Source: an uncultured virus (IMG/VR IMGVR_UViG_3300025284_000066)
Lineage: Duplodnaviria > Heunggongvirae > Uroviricota > Caudoviricetes
Strand: one strand, 5' to 3'
DNA: 64,000 nucleotides
Virus record (IMG/VR): IMGVR_UViG_3300025284_000066
Shown: positions 20,297-31,739 of the stretch, one piece after another
Layout of the letters: every line of letters begins with the position of its first letter
Numbering within the stretch: position 1 is the first letter of the stretch
Made by a program: the position numbers and the translations under genes
Notes under the pieces: model-generated
What the model was told of the DNA's origin: nothing
What the model saw: only the letters and a program-made list of their open reading frames with translations
The model's database searches: none

Positions 20297-20590
20297 GTGA
20301 ACACGCGCACCTCTCAATTGGCAGGCCAGGAGCTCGAAGCCTGGGTAGCCAAGGCCCTGGGCGAGCAGGCCTACAAGACCCTCTGGTCGGACTTCGAGAA
20401 GTTGGTAGACCGTTTCGCGATCAGCATCTCGCCCCTCCCGGGCAAGGGCCTGCAGTGGGTCGCGATCGTGATCGGTCGGCCAGGCACTGGACTATCCGAT
20501 GGCCCATACCAAGAGGGCCCGACGCCCCGAATCGCCGTAGGGCGCGCGATCGTTGCAGCCCGATTCGGCAAAGACCTTCAGATCGGCTGA
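20297..20590 (+). CDS. NinX/DUF2591-like phage protein
   Basis: TSQLAGQELEAWVAKALG...GPTPRIAVGRAIVAARFG. Confidence 0.7.
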   Translation: MNTRTSQLAGQELEAWVAKALGEQAYKTLWSDFEKLVDRFAISISPLPGKGLQWVAIVIGRPGTGLSDGPYQEGPTPRIAVGRAIVAARFGKDLQIG

Positions 20591-21714
20591 GCGAAGACCG
20601 CAGACCAATGCATATGGCTGCTCTTGTGGTGCCGCATTTCCCGTAGCTGGAACGTGATGCGCACGCGGCCGACGCGCGCCACGTCGACCTCGGCCTCCAT
20701 CGTCTCCGGCAGTCCTTTCGCAGGCTCGGGAAGCTGCTTCGAGGCAGCCGACAGCTCCTCGACCGACACGCTCGCCAACACGCCGTTCGGGTGGAATGGA
20801 TCTTTCAAGTCCGGCATCCGGCCGTCGCCGTACTGCACCAGCATCTTCAGCGCCGTCATGCCGTTGCGCACGCCCTTGTCCTCGTCGCAGTTGTTGAAGA
20901 TCATGTGGGCGTTCCGCGCCTTGTAGGCCAGTCGCACCGTCTCGGCGATGATGCCTTTGAGCTCGGCGTCCGAATACTCGTAGGAGAACCTTTCCGCCGG
21001 CGAGGACACCGCCGCGTTGTACGTCTCGGTGTTCCGCCCATGCAGGCGCACCAGCGTGTAGTTCGGATTCGTGACCTCCCAGACCGGCGGCACGCTGTTG
21101 TCGAAGCCGCGCGGGCCGTCGACCACGGTGTGCACGGCGTTCAGGGCGCGCAGCATGGCCAATGTCTCGACGGTCCGCTTCGTGCCGTCCCACCAGCTGC
21201 TGTGTCGAAACTCGATGCTGATGGTGTCCCGCGGCAGCTTCTGGCGGATGGACTCCAGGTGCGCGACCACCCGAGGGCTCGGCACCACCGACGGCGGGAA
21301 CTGGAAGTGGATCAGCCCGAGCTTGCCGTTCAGGCGCAGCGGCTCGAGCGATTGGTGGAAGGCCTCCCACAGCGCATCCTTCACCTCGTCGGCGGTGTCC
21401 CGGTAGAGCAGCCGCTTCCGGCCGGGCAGCAGCTCCTTCACGCCGCGCGGCAGCACCTGCACGTCGGTTTGGTGCCCGGTGAAGAAGCGGAACGCCTTCA
21501 CATTGAAGACGAACCCTTCGGGCGTGCGCGCCGCCCAGTTGTGCGTGTTCGTCTGGGAGGGGATGGCGTAGTAGCTGCTGTCCACCTCGACCAGCGGGAA
21601 GATGCTGGCGTAGTAGCGCAGGCGCGCCTCCGGTGTCTTGCAGTCCGGAGGGTAGAAGCGGCCGCAGTCGATCAGCGTCTTCTCGGCCCAGGAAGCATGC
21701 CCCACGAGAGTCAT
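20578..21714 (-). CDS. DUF72-family protein with a C-terminal extension
   Basis: VEVDSSYY, FVFNVKA, HFQFPP, IEFRH, VRLHGRN, YEYS..EL and IFNN motifs. Confidence 0.9.
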   Translation of the reverse strand: MTLVGHASWAEKTLIDCGRFYPPDCKTPEARLRYYASIFPLVEVDSSYYAIPSQTNTHNWAARTPEGFVFNVKAFRFFTGHQTDVQVLPRGVKELLPGRKRLLYRDTADEVKDALWEAFHQSLEPLRLNGKLGLIHFQFPPSVVPSPRVVAHLESIRQKLPRDTISIEFRHSSWWDGTKRTVETLAMLRALNAVHTVVDGPRGFDNSVPPVWEVTNPNYTLVRLHGRNTETYNAAVSSPAERFSYEYSDAELKGIIAETVRLAYKARNAHMIFNNCDEDKGVRNGMTALKMLVQYGDGRMPDLKDPFHPNGVLASVSVEELSAASKQLPEPAKGLPETMEAEVDVARVGRVRITFQLREMRHHKSSHMHWSAVFAQPI

Positions 21715-22535: not shown

Positions 22536-23501
22536 ATGGCAACACGCAAGCCGGCCAAGAAGCAGGCACCCGCACAGAAGAAGACCACCCCCAAGCCCGC
22601 AGCCGCCAAGAAGGCCGCGGGCGCACCTGCGCGCAAGAAGGCCGCACCGCCGGCGAAGCCGAAGAAGCCAGCCCGACCGGCCCGAGCAGCAACACTAGCA
22701 CCAGCCGCTGAACCCGCACAGCTCGGCCTGACCGACCTCCAGCAGCGCTTCGTCGACGAATACCTGGTGGACCTGAACGGCACGCAGGCTGCCATCCGAG
22801 CCGGCTACAGCCCGGACACCGCCCGGCAGATGGCATCGGAGAACCTGTCAAAACCGTACATCCAGATCGCCATCGCTGAAGCTCGAAAGGCCCAGCAGGC
22901 GCGCACGCACATCGAGGCCGATCGCGTGGTGGTGGAGGCTTGGAACATCGTGTTCGCCGACCCGCGTGAGCTGGTGCAGATCAAGGTCGGCTGCTGCCGG
23001 CACTGCTGGGGCGAAGGTTTCAAGTTCCAGCGCACCGTGGGCGAGTTCAACCACGACCGCGAGCAGCACGCCCTCAAGGCTGGCAACCTGGCCGACTTCG
23101 ACGAGAAGGGCGGCATCGGCTTCGACCCGCTCAAGCCGCCGCATCCGGCCTGCCCGGACTGTGGTGGCGATGGCTACCCGCGCACCGTGCTGACCGACAC
23201 GCGCCAACTGTCGCCCGCAGCGCGCGCCCTGTATGCCGGCGCCAAGATGACGAAGTACGGTATCGAGGTGCAGATGCACGACAAGGCCGCCTTCGCCGAG
23301 AAGCTCTTCAAGCACCTGGGCCTCTACGAGAAGGACAACCAGCAGAAGACCGACCCGCTGGCGTCGCTGCTGAGCCGGATCACGACCGGCAACGCCAACG
23401 GCTTCCGGCCCGTGGCCGACGACCCCGAGGTTCCCGATGCTGGCGCTCCGACGCCGCCGAGCGCGCTCCAGCCGCGCCAGGACGTGGACGGCGAGGACTG
23501 A
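22536..23501 (+). CDS. terS: Terminase small subunit with a Zn-ribbon insertion
   Basis: LTDLQQRFVDEYLVDLNGTQAAIRAGYS...ASENLSKP; directly upstream of terL. Confidence 0.9.
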   Translation: MATRKPAKKQAPAQKKTTPKPAAAKKAAGAPARKKAAPPAKPKKPARPARAATLAPAAEPAQLGLTDLQQRFVDEYLVDLNGTQAAIRAGYSPDTARQMASENLSKPYIQIAIAEARKAQQARTHIEADRVVVEAWNIVFADPRELVQIKVGCCRHCWGEGFKFQRTVGEFNHDREQHALKAGNLADFDEKGGIGFDPLKPPHPACPDCGGDGYPRTVLTDTRQLSPAARALYAGAKMTKYGIEVQMHDKAAFAEKLFKHLGLYEKDNQQKTDPLASLLSRITTGNANGFRPVADDPEVPDAGAPTPPSALQPRQDVDGED

Positions 23502-25197: not shown

Positions 25198-27519
25198 ATG
25201 ACGAACCAGACCAACGACCTCGACCCCGTGGACACGCCCGATGGCGATGTGCCGCTCTCGCTCGCCGAGTACCACCAGATCCTCGAAGAGATCGACAGCC
25301 AGCCGCGCGCGTGGCGCCGCATTGCCGACCGGGAAATGGACTACGCCGACGGCAACCAGCTCGACACCGAGCTGATCCGTCACATGAAGGCGCAGGGCAT
25401 CCCGACCACGATGGAGAACCTGATCGGCGCATCGCTGGAGGGCATCCGTGGCTACGAGGAGGCGAACCGCACGGACTGGCGCGTGACCTCCAACGGGCAG
25501 CCCGGGGGACAGGACGTGGCGGACGCGATCAGCTTCAAGCTCAACGAGGCCGAGCGGAAGAGCAAGGCCGACGACGCCTGCAGCGGCGCCTTCTATCCTC
25601 AGATCGCGGTGGGCATCGGCTGGGCCGAGGTGTGCCGCAACTCCGATCCCTTCGACTACCCCTACCAGTGCAACGTAATCCACCGCAACGAGATCCACTG
25701 GGACTGGGCCAGCACCAAGCTGGACCTGAGCGACGCGCGGTGGTTGCGCCGCCAGCGGTGGATGCACCCGTCGCGCCTGGCGCGCGTCTTTCCTGACCAG
25801 AAGGAGCTGATCCGCCGCTACGGCCGCGCCGGCATCAACTGGTGGGCGGAGTTCGACGAGACGCAGCACGGCGGCGGCAGCACGGGCCTGAACCGGGCGT
25901 GGGATGTGGCGCGCGAGTGGACCCGCCTCGAAGACCGGTGGTTCAACCCGATGAACAAGGAGGTGTGCGCCTCCGAGCTGTGGTACCGCCGGTGGTCCGA
26001 TGTGATCGTGCTCAAGAGTCCGGACGGCCGCGTGGTGGAGTACGACGAGAACAACCCGGCGCACGTCTTCGCCCTGGCCAAGGGGCGCGTGCAGTTCATG
26101 CGCGCCACCGTGGCGAAGGTCCGCCGCAGCTATTGGCTCGGCCCGCACGTCCTCTTCGACGGCCCCAGCCCATATGCGCACCGCTACTTCCCGTACGTGC
26201 CGTTCTGGGGTTTCCGCGAGGACGGCACCGGCGTGCCCTTCGGCTATGTGCGTAACCTGATGGACCAGCAGGACACGCTGAACAACGGCAATGCGCGCCT
26301 GCGCTGGGGTATGAGCTCCTACCGCACCGAGCGCACGAAGGGCGCCGTCGACATGCCCGACGACGTGTTCCGCCGCACCATCAACCGCCCGGATGCAGAC
26401 ATCGTGCTGAACGCGGCGCACATGGCACAGCAGGGCGCCCGGTTCGAGGTGAAGCGCGACTTCCAGGCCAACGCCCAGCAGCTCGAGCAGCTCCAGAACG
26501 CCCGCAATGCGATCGAGCGCATCAACCCCGCCGCCGCGGGTGCGTTCTCTGGCCGGCGCGGCACTGCCAACAGCGGCATCCAGGAACAGACACAGGTGGA
26601 GCAGGCCAACCAGTCGCTCGCGCACATGATGGGCAACCAGAAGCGGGCGCGTACGCTGGTGGGAGAAATGCTGGTGGCGATGATCGTGCAGGACATCGGC
26701 TCAAGCCCGCACGCGGTCGTCATCGAGGGCGACGACGTGACGCCAGAGCGCACCGTGGTGCTCAACAAGCCTGAGGCGGACCCGCTCACCGGCGTTCCCT
26801 ACCTCTCCAACGATCTGCAGCGCACCCTGCTGCAGGTCGGTTTGGAAGATGTGCCCAGCTCGCCAACCTACCGCGGGCAGCAGCTCAACGCACTGTCCGA
26901 AGCGATCAAGAGCCTGCCGGCGCAGTACCAGGCCGCGGCCATGCCCTTCCTCGCCAGCCTCATGGACGTGCCGTTCAAGCGGGCGCTCGTGGAGGCTCTG
27001 CGCGCCGCCTCGGCGCAGGAGACGCCCGAGCAGGTGGAGAAGCGCATCCAGGAGGCGGTGCAGGACGCGCTGGCAAAGGCCGGCAACGACCTCAAGGCCC
27101 GCGAGCTCGACATGAAGGAGCGGCTGACCGAGGCCCAGATCAAGCAGATCATGGCCCAGGCGGTGCAGACCGGCGTGCAGGCGGCCTTCGCGGCGATGCA
27201 GGGCGGCGCGCAGGTGGCGCAGATGCCGATGATCGCGCCGATTGCCGACGCCATCATGCAGGGCGCAGGCTACCAGCGGCCCACGCCGGGCGGCGACGAC
27301 CCGAATTTCCCGACGCCTGCGCAGACGGCCGCCATGAACATCAAAGACCCCTACATCCAGGGGCAGGGGCCGGCCGCGCTGGCGGCTCAGGAGGAAGCTG
27401 CTGCTGCACCGCTGGTGCGCGAGAACACCAGCCCGACATTCCCGGCGCGCGCGGGGGCGGGGGCCAGCGGCATGGACGGCATCGAGACGGCGCGCACCAC
27501 CGACAACGTGCCAGCATAG
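25198..27519 (+). CDS. Portal protein (P22-like)
   Basis: Follows terL; DYADGNQL, FPYVPFWG...GVPFGYVRNLMDQQD; ~770 aa. Confidence 0.88.
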   Translation: MTNQTNDLDPVDTPDGDVPLSLAEYHQILEEIDSQPRAWRRIADREMDYADGNQLDTELIRHMKAQGIPTTMENLIGASLEGIRGYEEANRTDWRVTSNGQPGGQDVADAISFKLNEAERKSKADDACSGAFYPQIAVGIGWAEVCRNSDPFDYPYQCNVIHRNEIHWDWASTKLDLSDARWLRRQRWMHPSRLARVFPDQKELIRRYGRAGINWWAEFDETQHGGGSTGLNRAWDVAREWTRLEDRWFNPMNKEVCASELWYRRWSDVIVLKSPDGRVVEYDENNPAHVFALAKGRVQFMRATVAKVRRSYWLGPHVLFDGPSPYAHRYFPYVPFWGFREDGTGVPFGYVRNLMDQQDTLNNGNARLRWGMSSYRTERTKGAVDMPDDVFRRTINRPDADIVLNAAHMAQQGARFEVKRDFQANAQQLEQLQNARNAIERINPAAAGAFSGRRGTANSGIQEQTQVEQANQSLAHMMGNQKRARTLVGEMLVAMIVQDIGSSPHAVVIEGDDVTPERTVVLNKPEADPLTGVPYLSNDLQRTLLQVGLEDVPSSPTYRGQQLNALSEAIKSLPAQYQAAAMPFLASLMDVPFKRALVEALRAASAQETPEQVEKRIQEAVQDALAKAGNDLKARELDMKERLTEAQIKQIMAQAVQTGVQAAFAAMQGGAQVAQMPMIAPIADAIMQGAGYQRPTPGGDDPNFPTPAQTAAMNIKDPYIQGQGPAALAAQEEAAAAPLVRENTSPTFPARAGAGASGMDGIETARTTDNVPA

Positions 27520-27566
27520 GCAGTGGCGGCGCGTAAAGTACGGGCTTCCCAAATCCTGGTGAGCCT

Positions 27567-28517
27567 ATGACAGACCTCACGGCAGCCGCATCAGATCCCA
27601 ATGGCCGGCGCGCTCCCCCTCGGAGTCTTTTCAAATACTTCTCCCCTGCGGGAACCAGATTTTTAGCGAACTGGCATCTTCGATTCAGCCAGCCCGGGGC
27701 CATGAATGACCCGTTTGAATTCAGCCCACATGTTGAAAGTTGGGGCACCGCTGAAGAAGAGCTTGCGAAGGTCGACCAGATGTGGGAGGAAAGCACAATC
27801 AGGGAGTATGAGAGGCAGTCGGAGGGGTTTCGCGCGCGTGTCAGCCAGGAAGAGTTTCTGACGAAGCTTCGGTTGAAGTACAAGGCGACTGATGTTGCAC
27901 GGGCGCACGACAGCATCCGGCAGAAGGCCTACCAATTGATGGCACAGGGAGTTACAGACATGGCGAACTCCGCTATCGGCGTGTTGTGTTTGACCGAGGA
28001 GCCGGCCAACCTGCTGATGTGGGCTCACTACAGCGAAAGCCATACCGGCTTCGTTGTGGAGTTCGATACCGAGCACGAGTTCTTTCAGAGCAAGGTGCCT
28101 CCGGCGCACGTGAAGGCCGAGGCGCAAGAGATCGCGGACTTTCCGACGGAGTACGGCTTCATGCGGCCTGTGAGTTACTCGGAAGCACGCCCGGCTGTCG
28201 TGCTTACACAGATGAGCTTCGGTGCGTTCTTGGTGAAGGGTTCCCCATGGGCCTATGAGCGCGAATGGCGCATGCTGATGCCGCTGAACTACAGCCAAAC
28301 ACCGTACAAAGGGCCCTACCGATTTCCCGTGCACCTGTGGCCCATTCCGAAGGCGGCGGTCCGCAGAGTCATTGCCGGCGCCAACGCCACTATGGCCGTC
28401 ATCGAGAGCATCCGCCGGCTCTCGGCCGACCCTGAGGCACGACACATTCAACTGCAATATGCGCAAGTTGATCGCGAACACTTCAGCATGTCGTTCGCAG
28501 ACCTGCCTCCTGCCTAG
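27567..28517 (+). CDS. DUF2971-domain moron protein
   Basis: LFKY...MNDPFE...CLTE...LMWAHYSESHTGFVVEFD...V.Y...K...WAYEREWR; less GC-rich than the flanks. Confidence 0.85.
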   Translation: MTDLTAAASDPNGRRAPPRSLFKYFSPAGTRFLANWHLRFSQPGAMNDPFEFSPHVESWGTAEEELAKVDQMWEESTIREYERQSEGFRARVSQEEFLTKLRLKYKATDVARAHDSIRQKAYQLMAQGVTDMANSAIGVLCLTEEPANLLMWAHYSESHTGFVVEFDTEHEFFQSKVPPAHVKAEAQEIADFPTEYGFMRPVSYSEARPAVVLTQMSFGAFLVKGSPWAYEREWRMLMPLNYSQTPYKGPYRFPVHLWPIPKAAVRRVIAGANATMAVIESIRRLSADPEARHIQLQYAQVDREHFSMSFADLPPA

Positions 28518-28519
28518 CC

Positions 28520-28559
28520 CCCTGTAGGGTTCGCTCGAACCCAAGCCGCTGAAGACGAT
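28520..28559 (+). promoter_or_regulatory. Putative late promoter, copy 3
   Basis: CCCTGTAGGGTTCGCT-N18-GACGAT. Confidence 0.7.
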
Positions 28560-28565
28560 TGCTCC

Positions 28566-28680
28566 GTCAACGGGTAGCGGCCAAGACAACCAACCCAGAG
28601 CCCTGTGCTCTGGCATCCCAGCCCCGCAAGGGGACCGGCCGCTACCGGGGATGCCAGACCACAGGGCTTTCGTCTTCCCA
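28566..28680 (+). ncRNA. Structured leader / c4-like RNA element
   Basis: Long stem enclosing two hairpins; a loop complementary to an upstream 10-mer. Confidence 0.5.
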
Positions 28681-28688
28681 GGAGCCCT

Positions 28689-29858
28689 ATGAGCAACTTC
28701 AGCCACATCATCATCCCGACCGTCGGCCGCGTCGTCTGGTTCTATCCAGCGTCGAAGACCGGCGAGGCGGGTTTCGCCTGCAACGAGAGCGGTGGCCCCT
28801 ACGCGGCCATCGTTGCCCGTGTCTGGAACGACAGCATGGTCAACCTCGCCGTCTTCGATGCGAACGGCACCGTGCACAGCAGGACCAGCGTGCACCTGGT
28901 GCAGGGAGACGAGCCCGCGCCCGACAGCGCGTTCTGTGGGTGGATGCCCTTCCAGAAGGGTCAGGCCGCCAAGCAGGACGCGCAGCAGGCCAAGGACACG
29001 AACGGCGGGCCGCGCTTCCGCACCCATCGCGATGAGCTCGAGCAATCTGCCGCGCACGCAATCGCCACGCGCGTCGCCGAGCTGGGCGCCAACGGCGCGC
29101 GAATCGGCCACGAGGTTCGGCAGGCACTGGATGCGCTGGTGAACTACGGCGCCAAAGCGGCGGAGCCGGCTGCCAAGGATCACGCCTCGCGCGTGCTCTA
29201 CCCGGCGATCCGCAACGCCATGGAGGAGCTCGGGACGTTGCACCACGGCTTCAATGATCGCGTCAACCGGGCGTGGAACTACCTGCACAGCGCGTTCTAC
29301 AGCGAATCGCCGGCACCCGCTTCCGCGCCCGGCTTGCGCTGCACCCTCGCGAAGGACGAGACGTTGGTGCGGCTGCAGGTGCGAGACGATCATCGCGAGG
29401 AGCCTGTGGTTGCCGCCGCCCTGGACTCCCTCCGCGGGTGCGTCCACAACACTTTGGACGACGGGCTGATGCACCACATGACCGGCACGGCCGGAGTGCC
29501 GCGCGCCGTCACCGAAACAGAGTTGGCCGCCAAGGCGGTGGGGCCGCGCGTCACCGAGGCCGACATCGAGGCAGCCATCGCCAGCGAGCACTACTTCACC
29601 GCGGGCGAAGGGATTGCGGGGCGTTGCTACCGGGAAGTATCGACGCTTCACTCTCCGCGGGAACTGGAGCACGTCACCGTCTGCGTGCTGATCCTGCACA
29701 ACGGCACGAAACTGGTAGGCGTGAACGAGGGGCCAGTGTCGCCGGAGAACTTCGATCCCGAGATCGGCCGGCGGTATGCGCGCGAGAAGGCCATCGATCA
29801 GGTGTGGCCGCTACTCGGCTACGAGCTGCGCACCCGGCTCGCTGGCTCGGGCACCTGA
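28689..29858 (+). CDS. Multidomain protein with a C-terminal N4 gp49 / Sf6 gp66-family domain
   Basis: PRVTEADIEAAIASEHYF...TVCVLILHNG...VSPENFDPEIGRRYAREKAIDQVWPLLGYEL. Confidence 0.8.
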   Translation: MSNFSHIIIPTVGRVVWFYPASKTGEAGFACNESGGPYAAIVARVWNDSMVNLAVFDANGTVHSRTSVHLVQGDEPAPDSAFCGWMPFQKGQAAKQDAQQAKDTNGGPRFRTHRDELEQSAAHAIATRVAELGANGARIGHEVRQALDALVNYGAKAAEPAAKDHASRVLYPAIRNAMEELGTLHHGFNDRVNRAWNYLHSAFYSESPAPASAPGLRCTLAKDETLVRLQVRDDHREEPVVAAALDSLRGCVHNTLDDGLMHHMTGTAGVPRAVTETELAAKAVGPRVTEADIEAAIASEHYFTAGEGIAGRCYREVSTLHSPRELEHVTVCVLILHNGTKLVGVNEGPVSPENFDPEIGRRYAREKAIDQVWPLLGYELRTRLAGSGT

Positions 29859-29868
29859 GGGGCACGCG

Positions 29869-30201
29869 ATGGCGACGGCGATATCTCGCTCAGCCTGGCC
29901 GCACTTCCGGTCAGCGTCTCTCAGCTTCCGCCTGCTGGACGGCTCTATCCGGGAGCCGGTGGCAGGGGCGGTGGAGTTCGTCCTGAGCCAGGAGGAATTC
30001 GGCATGGTGCTGCGCGGCTGCGCCGTCTATCGAGTGGAAGGCGCAATGGTGTTTCGAGCCGATCAACAGGTCGACACCTCGCGCCTGCTCGCCACCGAGG
30101 CGCGCCGCGCGGACTTCGACCTCTGCAGGGCGTGTCTCCTCGATATCGTTGCCCAGGTACGCGAGTACAACGCCGTGGTTCTCCCCGTGCCCAACGACTG
30201 A
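29869..30201 (+). CDS. Hypothetical protein
   Basis: GAGGGG RBS; fills the gap between genes. Confidence 0.55.
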   Translation: MATAISRSAWPHFRSASLSFRLLDGSIREPVAGAVEFVLSQEEFGMVLRGCAVYRVEGAMVFRADQQVDTSRLLATEARRADFDLCRACLLDIVAQVREYNAVVLPVPND

Positions 30202-30209
30202 TCCGACCT

Positions 30210-30494
30210 ATGGAAGCGATCACCACAACCACGGCCACCAACAGGGGCGAGCCGTCTCCGTCGATCGATCAGATCCTCGCCTCGATGGAGCTTCTGCTGC
30301 GCGACCCGCTGCCGCCGGAGCCGCTCGGCGAGTACATGCGGTCGAAGGGCATGCCGCCCGAGCTGGGCTACATCTTCGTCCTGCCGGAGAGCATGCGCGG
30401 CGAGCTGCTGTTCCCACCGCGCTACGTGCGCTTCAGCCCGAGCACCTCGGCACCGTTCATCTTTCTGCGGCCCGAACTCGTCGCCCCCCTGTAG
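30210..30494 (+). CDS. Hypothetical protein
   Basis: ORF ending at the next late promoter. Confidence 0.5.
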   Translation: MEAITTTTATNRGEPSPSIDQILASMELLLRDPLPPEPLGEYMRSKGMPPELGYIFVLPESMRGELLFPPRYVRFSPSTSAPFIFLRPELVAPL

Positions 30495-30526
30495 GGTTTC
30501 ACGAGAGCGCGAGCACTCGGCAAAGT
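30487..30526 (+). promoter_or_regulatory. Putative late promoter, copy 4
   Basis: CCCTGTAGGGTTTCAC-N18-CAAAGT. Confidence 0.7.
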
Positions 30527-30530
30527 CGTG

Positions 30531-30707
30531 CTCAAGCGTGATGCGAAAGCAAAGCGTGAAGTAGCCCGCTCGTGAGAGCCGGCACCTCCCTCGAAAGAGC
30601 GCGAGGTAACTCCCCCAGCTGGAGGTGTACGGGGTGGGGCTTCGGCCCCGCCCGGTGCTCCGAATGCGGATGTCCCTAGCGGCCACGGCGACATGTGGCG
30701 GACGAGC
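30531..30707 (+). ncRNA. Structured RNA / long leader of the head operon
   Basis: Four GNRA-capped hairpins, one UUCG hairpin and an enclosing helix. Confidence 0.55.
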
Positions 30708-31739
30708 ATGACGGCAACAACCGACAACTTCTTTGACAGCATCAACGGCGCACTGACGCCGGAGCAGGCTCTCCAGGCATTGAGCTTGGAAGAGAAGGGC
30801 GATACCGGCGCCAAGCCGGAAGACGGTGGCGCGCCCACGACCACCACTGCAACCGACGATCAGCCCGGTGCGGCTGAGCCCACGAAGGGCAACGAGCAAA
30901 CCGACGAGACGAAGGGCAAGGCCGATGGCGCCCAACCCATCCCGGAAGACCAGCAGACCGCGGACAACACCGTGGTCCTGGCCAGGGACGGCAAGCACAC
31001 CATCGACTTCAGCCACCTGGACAAGGCACGCCAGCAACGCGACACGTACCGGGCCGAGGCAGAGGACGCGAAGCGCCAACTGGCGGACCTGCAAGCGCAG
31101 GCGAAGGCCCGCGAGAACGAGGGGCAGGCCCCGACCAAGACCGACAACATGGTTGCCACAGCAGAGGCGGCGATGTCGAAGGGCGTGGACCCGGGCCTGT
31201 TCGGCGACTTCTCGGAAGAGGCGCTGGCAGCTGGCATCGCCAAGCTGGTGCAGCAGCAGGTAGAGGAGCGCGTCGGCAAGGCCGTCGCACCGCTGCAGGC
31301 CAAGCAACAGCAGGACGCCGCCACCGCGCACTACGAGGCCATCTACAAGGCGCACCCCAACGCTGACTCCATCGTGGAGAGCGCCGAGTTCAAGGCCTGG
31401 GTGGATGCCCACCCGAGCGCGGTCCGCGCTGCGTACTGGCAGTTGTTCGACCCGAAGACGGGCGGGACGGCTGAGCAGATCGTCGAAGTGTTCGATGCCT
31501 TCACGAAGGGCAACAAGGAAGCTCCTACGCCCGCAGCCTCTGACAAGGCTGCGGCCACGGCCGCCGCGGCGTCCGCGCGGAAGGAACCCCCTGCAAGCCT
31601 GTCCGGTATCCCCGGCGGGCGCGCGGACGGGCTCTCTCCGCACGAGCACATGGCAGGCATGGGTGGCGTCGACATGTACGCGGCCATGGAAGGCATGAGC
31701 CCCGCACAGATCGAAGCCTTTCTGAACAAGCAACTCTGA
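30708..31739 (+). CDS. Capsid scaffolding protein
   Basis: Acidic, helical, coiled-coil protein directly before the capsid gene; C-terminal MSPAQIEAFL helix. Confidence 0.8.
   Translation: MTATTDNFFDSINGALTPEQALQALSLEEKGDTGAKPEDGGAPTTTTATDDQPGAAEPTKGNEQTDETKGKADGAQPIPEDQQTADNTVVLARDGKHTIDFSHLDKARQQRDTYRAEAEDAKRQLADLQAQAKARENEGQAPTKTDNMVATAEAAMSKGVDPGLFGDFSEEALAAGIAKLVQQQVEERVGKAVAPLQAKQQQDAATAHYEAIYKAHPNADSIVESAEFKAWVDAHPSAVRAAYWQLFDPKTGGTAEQIVEVFDAFTKGNKEAPTPAASDKAAATAAAASARKEPPASLSGIPGGRADGLSPHEHMAGMGGVDMYAAMEGMSPAQIEAFLNKQL

Follow-up and report, generated by a model that had tools for sequence, protein, structure and literature searches.

The locus described here raises the question of what an Acb4-family domain is doing among the head genes of a temperate phage, and what kind of domain it has been fused to. 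Whether a phage overcomes CBASS and Thoeris is decided by sponges, of which new families have been found through fusion to known ones, in a search that used Pfam labels (Tal et al., 10.1101/2025.07.12.664507, cited throughout from the accessible part of the text). An earlier note on the window (the whole stretch of 64,000 nucleotides analyzed here, from an uncultured virus of the Caudoviricetes) had described one of its genes as a concatenated anti-defense protein. Our analysis supports a fusion of the anti-defense type and confirms as a real feature an ORF in which an Acb4-family domain is joined to a separate small barrel domain.

The fusion gene and its slot in the head operon

The head operon of this prophage runs in the order small terminase, large terminase, P22-like portal, DUF2971, fusion gene, two small genes, probable scaffold, and major capsid protein. 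The features of the slot between portal and scaffold are as follows, with nucleotide positions referring to the window and amino acid positions to the fusion protein.

25198..27519, plus strand: P22-like portal gene, which bounds the slot on the left
27567..28517, plus strand: DUF2971 gene, first in the slot, with a lower GC3 (0.70)
28573..28582, plus strand: 10-nt element complementary to the leader loop, a possible pseudoknot or switch, with one compensatory change in L008
28597..28670, plus strand: conserved leader RNA with a 22-bp stem, a GNRA-capped side hairpin, and a 10-nt loop at 28637-28646 (z -4.7)
28680..28684, plus strand: AGGAG, Shine-Dalgarno-like, of the fusion gene
28689..29858, plus strand: fusion gene, 389 aa, in the order N-domain, M1, M2, disordered linker, Acb4-family domain (open frame, PF13876, phrog_2293, model)
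28707..28982, plus strand: N-terminal domain (N-domain), aa 7-98, an SH3/Tudor/KOW-like five-strand barrel with a C-terminal helix; the N part of PHROG 2293
29025..29156, plus strand: helical module M1, aa 113-156, in some relatives only
29178..29342, plus strand: conserved helical hairpin M2, aa 164-218, with no occurrence apart from the N-domain or a sponge domain
29355..29489, plus strand: disordered linker, aa 223-267; in sister prophages directly followed by a Tad2 domain, then a stop and a second start
29514..29849, plus strand: Acb4-family domain (PF13876, N4 gp49/Sf6 gp66), aa 276-387, with Thr-Lys replacing SPO1 F48-E49 (Pfam, PDB, fold)
29869..30201, plus strand: small gene A, 110 aa, with one non-identical relative (L006, 80%)
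30210..30494, plus strand: small gene B, 94 aa, which follows Acb4 in L006 and L009-L013
30693..31739, plus strand: probable scaffold gene (phrog_479, with no assigned function), a role suggested by its position ahead of the capsid gene; bounds the slot on the right

AGGAG lies 5 nt upstream of the ATG at 28689, which is the same start as in close homologues, and an alternative longer GTG start at 28605 falls within an RNA hairpin. GC3 is 0.83-0.90 across all five segments of the gene, similar to that of the scaffold gene (0.84). A contig of run X2, which may be the source of the window DNA, matches positions 27000-31500 with zero differences, and a full-length homologue (P0002) shares 69% identity over 99% of the protein. 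The nearest named homologues are Variovorax proteins; a search of the whole fusion protein against genome contigs confirmed none of 51 candidate stretches.

A model of the fusion protein built on a 105-row alignment places the barrel at 15-85, a helix up to 106, helices at 113-156, a hairpin at 164-206, disorder at 223-267 (pLDDT below 50 at aa 223-259 and 261-267), and an Acb4 fold at 276-387. The parts do not pack together, and the pTM of 0.39 for the full-length model suggests that they are independent of each other. The earlier note had described one helical middle domain; the helices are present, and they form two modules (113-156 and 164-206) followed by the disordered linker rather than a single domain. 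M2 is strongly conserved (72-78% identity), and both modules come and go among relatives. A short-protein search with the middle part gave two matches, both with the N-domain, while three stored proteins have M modules and Acb4 with no N-domain match and may be truncated. For the middle region the best Atlas score was 0.77, below the bar, and the structure search gave generic helical matches only. The partner domains had been put forward as candidate inhibitors, and this can be upheld for the N-domain through its sponge partners; the middle part as an independent inhibitor is rejected for now, as it is never found alone.

Ten viral loci illustrate how the gene may have taken its present shape. 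One is identical to the window (L004), two are fused likewise (L005, L008), and L013 holds the Acb4 end only; the other six (L006, L007, L009-L012) encode the N-domain, with or without M modules, and Tad2, followed by a stop codon and, overlapping, Acb4 as a gene of its own. In a contig of run X7, 475 letters replace 29422-29527 (placed at 85% likeness). The comparison shows that the fusion and the two-gene form differ by a Tad2 module that was either lost or gained. Of the two, loss is favored because fused relatives join at differing points and because one of them (P0007) keeps the old start Met; repeated in-frame loss of Tad2 would be the simplest reading. Linkers also vary widely in length and content among N-domain relatives.

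The slot itself appears to be exchangeable. A 97-99% identical prophage (G001), with 97-98% DNA identity on both sides of the slot, has neither the fusion gene nor small genes A and B. The earlier suggestion that the two downstream genes belong to the same cassette is borne out insofar as all three are absent together; as to function, genes A and B have no Pfam or NCBIfam match and one weak PHROG match (E 0.054), and among viral contigs each occurs at two loci, of which one has the same sequence as the window. In G001, window positions 27454-30484 are replaced by G001:C1:37091-39866 (L016 714-3313), with a reverse-strand AAA_21/AAA_15 ATPase of 556 aa and a D12-class adenine methylase of 291 aa, a pair that is likely a defense system. 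Runs X7 and X8 contain a 2,809-letter replacement with such ends. The slot thus seems to take defense and anti-defense cargo in turn. In sister prophages, unrelated genes, several of them on the minus strand, occupy the place of DUF2971. Upstream of the small terminase lies a DUF72 gene (20578-21714, minus strand), and the small terminase itself (22536-23501, PF03592, 321 aa) has a Cys-rich insertion (CCRHC...CPDC).

The leader RNA may control expression of the slot; no sigma-70 promoter-like site was found in 27400-30800. Across seven sequences, which are few and related, 98% of cells are paired, and in 2 of 36 pairs both partners have changed, once in the pseudoknot helix; the GNRA loop varies as GCAA, GCGA, GAGA, GGAA, and GUGA. 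The leader is kept in those sister prophages whose sequence extends to it, and its exact pattern occurs at 12 loci, all in this prophage group; the leader profile had no match in distant N-domain loci and, at E<=1, none in Rfam. Its arrangement resembles that of P4 CI RNA and seqA (CI/seqA/seqC in the accessible part of PMC4825925). Antisense leaders of the P4 CI/IsrK type pair with both upstream and downstream elements; for the leader loop in the window there is the upstream 10-nt complement, and no downstream one was found nearby.

The Acb4-family domain and its altered pocket

Membership of the C-terminal domain in the Acb4 family is shown at the level of sequence. PF13876 matches aa 288-384 with 94.5 bits against a cut-off of 27 (E 5.8e-27, profile positions 1-82 of 82), in agreement with the N4 gp49/Sf6 gp66 signature claimed before, and this Pfam family is the Acb4 family in the accessible part of Chang et al. 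(10.1101/2024.12.30.630793, cited below to the same extent), as the earlier note had stated. The sole PDB sequence match of the fusion protein is SPO1 Acb4 (9E4W, E 0.0066). The same structure fills ranks 1-10 of a Foldseek search with the domain (probability 1.0, TM by target 0.59-0.68, E 0.0035) and rank 1 in VIA (Z 7.9, rmsd 2.4, 75 aligned). The modeled domain conforms to the SPO1 Acb4 fold, a three-strand sheet with flanking helices. SPO1 Acb4 is thus of the same Pfam family and fold, but is a single domain of 96 aa, compared with the 389 aa of the fusion protein.

At the pocket positions of SPO1 Acb4 as named by Chang et al. (chain numbering minus one), 2 of 10 residues are identical here (F62, I66), N63 is changed to D, and the other changes are K36 to H, F48 to T, E49 to K, V56 to P, Y57 to V, T70 to Y, and K81 to P. 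The equivalents of N61, F62, I66, and G67 are kept in the fusion's Acb4 domain, with N61, F62, and I66 forming the adenine side. F48 is the guanine-stacking Phe, and among 120 stored domains it is retained in 91 of the 102 that fall outside a Thr-Lys subclade and in none of the 18 inside; both F48 to T and E49 to K occur in 18/18 members of this subclade, which is defined by that motif, together with a one-residue loop insertion. As F48 and E49 are replaced, the base preference of the domain would probably be shifted.

It could be argued from these replacements that the Thr-Lys subclade has lost or changed its ligand binding and that the domain is not an anti-CBASS sponge. We regard this as unlikely. 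The retained residues speak against it, and most other proteobacterial members deviate from SPO1 as well, K36, E49, Y57, T70, and K81 being mostly different in the 102 other domains too. Moreover, 8/8 Acb4 homologues tested bound 3'3'-cGAMP (Chang et al., 10.1101/2024.12.30.630793), and in L006, L007, and L009 the Acb4 of this subclade persists as an intact gene of its own. Binding of a cyclic dinucleotide by the domain is likely, with a specificity that may differ, and binding of 3'3'-cGAMP by the subclade is not assured. One may speculate that the altered pocket sets apart a subclade whose specificity has changed, perhaps so as to escape Panoptes decoys.

The N-terminal domain and its sponge partners

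The N-terminal 90 or so residues had been claimed to form a separate small beta domain, and both sequence and model agree with this. A PHROG family of no assigned function, phrog_2293, matches aa 7-132, and the model gives a five-strand barrel with a helix at a mean pLDDT of 89. The domain falls in no Pfam or NCBIfam family; the fusion protein has no Tad2, Sequestin, or RyR Pfam match, and its second domain lies outside the characterized sponge families. Without a Pfam model, the N-domain would not be listed by a Pfam-based fusion search. It is nevertheless widespread: a search with aa 1-99 gave 2,959 clusters at E<=0.001 (clustered at 50% identity), in which the domain is often standalone. 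Among the best 150 of the 2,959 representatives, 31 are relatives of at most 115 aa, and phage Sopo carries a standalone 95-aa gene between terminase and portal. Small size and occurrence on its own agree with the traits by which Tal et al. picked sponge candidates.

Structural comparison gives an SH3/Tudor/KOW-like fold at background level. By sequence, solved structures gave one chance-level match (E 0.22) and no sponge in the PDB; Foldseek against solved structures gave none at E<=0.001, and the best VIA match had Z 6.1, rmsd 3.5, and 59 aligned residues, with none at Z of 8 or more and nothing above the common background. NusG/RfaH KOW, Tudor, and PWWP domains are included among these background-level neighbors. 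BFVD returned only uncharacterized proteins and the Atlas only unnamed clusters, and such an absence of a structural match does not show a new fold. Neither sequence nor fold searches matched a solved virion protein. Motifs of the N-domain are absent from the Lockin table, and Lockin is not among the fold matches in libraries that may lack a Lockin structure. A literature search that covered few subscription papers found no description of this domain.

The model also points to self-association. Four copies modeled head to tail scored 0.57, compared with 0.36 for the best control, with contacts agreeing to at least 92% and pLDDT of at least 77; this mark was reached by 20/30 solved pairs of one chain and by 1/23 single chains, in a calibration that applies to two copies, not four. 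The result supports, and does not show, self-association of the predicted barrel. Interface columns are conserved at 68% compared with 58% elsewhere (p 0.06), which is marginal. The conserved residues R14, R65, K90, K95, W85, Y/F88, Q89, and Q92 are suggestive only as to charged pockets; the invariant residues include W85, M86, Q89, and R14.

The partners give an indication of function. Of the best 150 of 2,959 relatives, 28 have a Pfam partner over the cut-off, and all of these are sponges (14 Acb4, 9 Tad2, 4 Sequestin, and 1 RyR); 121 have no Pfam partner and one has DUF6381 below the cut-off. Among 41 forms of at least 344 aa, the window's own included, 29 carry Acb4, 7 Tad2, 2 Tad1, 1 an FGE-sulfatase, and 2 nothing recognized, so that a sponge domain is present in 38/41 and a non-sponge accounts for 1 of 39 recognizable partners, in a count that may be biased because four fusions with Acb4 or Sequestin were among the sequences of the query alignment A1. 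The FGE-sulfatase-like domain, in P0268, is the sole non-sponge partner found. The partners span five families (Acb4, Tad2, Sequestin, RyR, and Tad1), and relatives of the fusion protein carry Tad2 and Sequestin, which are the partners of published Acb4 fusions. N-domain-Sequestin fusions are present in 17 table rows of Tal et al. (10.1101/2025.07.12.664507), and further N-domain fusions in 4 table rows of Chang et al. (10.1101/2024.12.30.630793), in both cases without comment in the accessible text.

The neighborhoods provide evidence on both sides. The 136 N-domain loci reduce to 114 at 90% identity; 34 of these are fused to a sponge, with the N-domain N-terminal in 33/34, in another 11 a sponge gene lies apart from the N-domain gene but within 1.5 kb, and 69 have no sponge within 1.5 kb as judged with four profiles (without Tad1/Acb2, Lockin, and TadIV-1), which weighs against a new sponge. 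Separate sponge genes number 17 in 331 kb within 1.5 kb of the N-domain and 8 in 511 kb beyond. In a hand count, without a chance control, of the longest flanking ORFs at 68 sponge-free loci, 38 loci lay beside genes for head or packaging, 12 beside genes for replication or nucleotides, 2 beside other genes, and 16 beside nothing annotated; the frequent place in head modules likewise weighs against a new sponge. A quick tree of 150 rows and 93 columns has 23 switches of partner label, where the minimum is 4 and the mean after shuffling 28; Tad2/Acb4 sister pairs are supported at 96-97%, and most forks are unresolved. Judged from this tree, the sponge partners appear to swap repeatedly.

Several variants deserve mention in their own right. 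Phage PA8 (L002, 2995-3801) has in the same slot a 268-aa N-domain protein that resembles P0099 and lacks Acb4, a natural Acb4-less variant. Other unnamed small domains recur as partners, one like the N-domain of RyR Tad (P0090) and one with a GMPWSF motif (P0049, P0145, P0258, P0005); by eye, we take the small partner domain of P0049 to be PGDYG-like. These recurring small domains are further sponge candidates. RyR-Tad-like N-termini of larger proteins also lie about 3 kb from the N-domain gene in L065, L091, L132, L139 (about 1060-1995), L122, L138, and L147.

Distant relatives of the N-domain have already been screened. Rows 20, 40, and 105 of Table S2 in Tal et al. (10.1101/2025.07.12.664507) are three candidates of 74-77 aa modeled as hexamers, which belong to the same superfamily as the N-domain and are never named or discussed in the accessible text. 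With Thoeris I, Thoeris II, cGAMP CBASS, and cUMP Pycsar, none of the three led to culture collapse, and in cCMP Pycsar one was negative and two were untransformed. The subfamily (80 loci, 40 aligned) matches the N-domain profile at 98% (E 2e-13, 75 columns), and one of the three proteins is identical by eye to L210. This negative screen lowers the odds that the N-domain binds those signals. It may not carry over, because the subfamily is without the invariant C-terminal helix motif WMPYQKGQA and without sponge fusion (it has 1 sponge neighbor in 80 loci). A motif search of the accessible part of the table found no member of the window's own N-domain clade.

Possible functions and comparison with known systems

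When these results are combined, we lean toward an anti-signaling fusion whose expression accompanies that of the head genes: its Acb4 domain would sequester cyclic dinucleotides, and a ring of N-domains would work to the same end, most probably through capture of another signal. The protein would belong to a temperate phage that carries it in a swappable head-operon slot with its own structured leader RNA. The Acb4 domain would quite probably tetramerize and sequester CBASS cyclic dinucleotides. With much less confidence, it can be hypothesized that the N-domain self-associates head to tail into a ring with the same anti-signaling task, the likeliest way being that a further signal is bound between its subunits. 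As spacers, M1, M2, and the linker could make room for two oligomers that differ in symmetry, and expression together with the head genes would coincide with the time when capsid-triggered defenses fire. Activity is known for fusions of Acb4 with Tad2 and with Sequestin (Tal et al., 10.1101/2025.07.12.664507; Fedorova et al., 10.64898/2026.06.04.730250, the latter also cited from its accessible part), and Sequestin was found by the same guilt-by-fusion logic (Tal et al.). A counter-precedent is the unrelated N-domain of RyR Tad, which had no activity alone (Fedorova et al.).

Other roles of the N-domain overlap with this one, and the probabilities that we attach to them are not meant to sum to one. 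It is conceivable, though we consider it rather doubtful, that the domain is a tether or scaffold, head-associated or ring-forming, that carries sponges to the procapsid or virion or raises their local concentration. The 38 of 68 sponge-free loci that flank terminase, portal, capsid, or other head genes, of several head types, would fit such a role, as would the standalone copy in phage Sopo, the N-terminal place of the domain in nearly all fusions, and the negative screen of distant relatives; in phage phiKZ, gp184 is an inner-capsid minor protein (PMC11297242, accessible part) whose residues 117-227 match a Tad1 domain. The 12 loci that flank replication or nucleotide genes and the missing match to a solved virion protein weigh against it, as does the nearly identical prophage G001, whose lack of the fusion gene implies that the gene is not needed for this head. 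Somewhat less probable still is that the N-domain has an unrelated role and often heads a moron slot in which sponges collect and fuse by in-frame deletion or stop loss, the fusion lending a strong start and M1, M2, and the linker being absorbed debris. The variable linkers, the differing junctions among close relatives with one internal start Met kept, the higher density of separate sponge genes near the domain, and the short relatives (31 of 150) would all follow from this. However, chance fusion would yield head, replication, and small-gene partners, and non-sponges make up 0/28 of the Pfam partners and a single one of the recognizable partners in long forms; the strong conservation of M2 also argues against debris.

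Aca proteins regulate anti-CRISPR operons, and by analogy the N-domain could be an RNA-binding regulator of sponge cassettes, a KOW/Tudor/Sm-like ring that binds the leader RNA and limits sponge expression. Sponges are costly because Acb4 triggers Panoptes (Fedorova et al., 10.64898/2026.06.04.730250); this cost, the KOW, Tudor, and PWWP neighbors (at background level), and the conserved leader with its complementary element ahead of the gene are in line with such a regulator. We nevertheless hold this to be very improbable, as the leader is confined to one prophage group while the N-domain is widespread, and two other genes separate the leader from the N-domain gene in L009-type loci.

Taken together, fusion to five sponge families and the failure of distant relatives against common signals point to an as yet untested signal or to a delivery function, and an untested signal would imply a defense system not yet matched to an inhibitor. 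The N-domain is therefore a testable candidate for a new counter-defense module. We also put forward, as a tentative and bolder proposal, that its barrel founds a large family (about 3,000 clusters at 50% identity) that is either a ring-forming sponge for a signal without a known sponge or a hub that carries five sponge families to the assembling capsid, where defenses trigger.

Comparison with known systems places the find. A small five-strand N-domain also precedes the sponge in RyR Tad of Pectobacterium phage CB1 (gp68), often as a single ORF (Fedorova et al., 10.64898/2026.06.04.730250); identity of the two N-domains (CB1 gp68_N) was rejected, with no match by N-domain profile or tblastn. 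The phiKZ protein gp184 (PDB 8Y6V, chain I) was found inside the capsid of a jumbo lytic phage and has a Tad1-like domain (residues 117-227, E 1.7e-12 to Tad1-like domains), on which the accessible part of the capsid paper (PMC11297242) is silent; no similarity was found between the N part of gp184 and the N-domain of the window. Close parallels are Acb4-Tad2 of Pasteurella phage Pm86 and Acb4-Sequestin of Pseudomonas phage Ab09 (gp59), which likewise join Acb4 to a second small domain in an anti-defense hotspot (Tal et al.; Fedorova et al.). Compared with these fusions, the partner in the window is no characterized sponge, and the gene belongs to a temperate phage, within its head operon. The literature already contains Acb4, fusions of sponges, and the use of fusions for discovery, and the value of the find is carried not by Acb4 but by the N-terminal domain.
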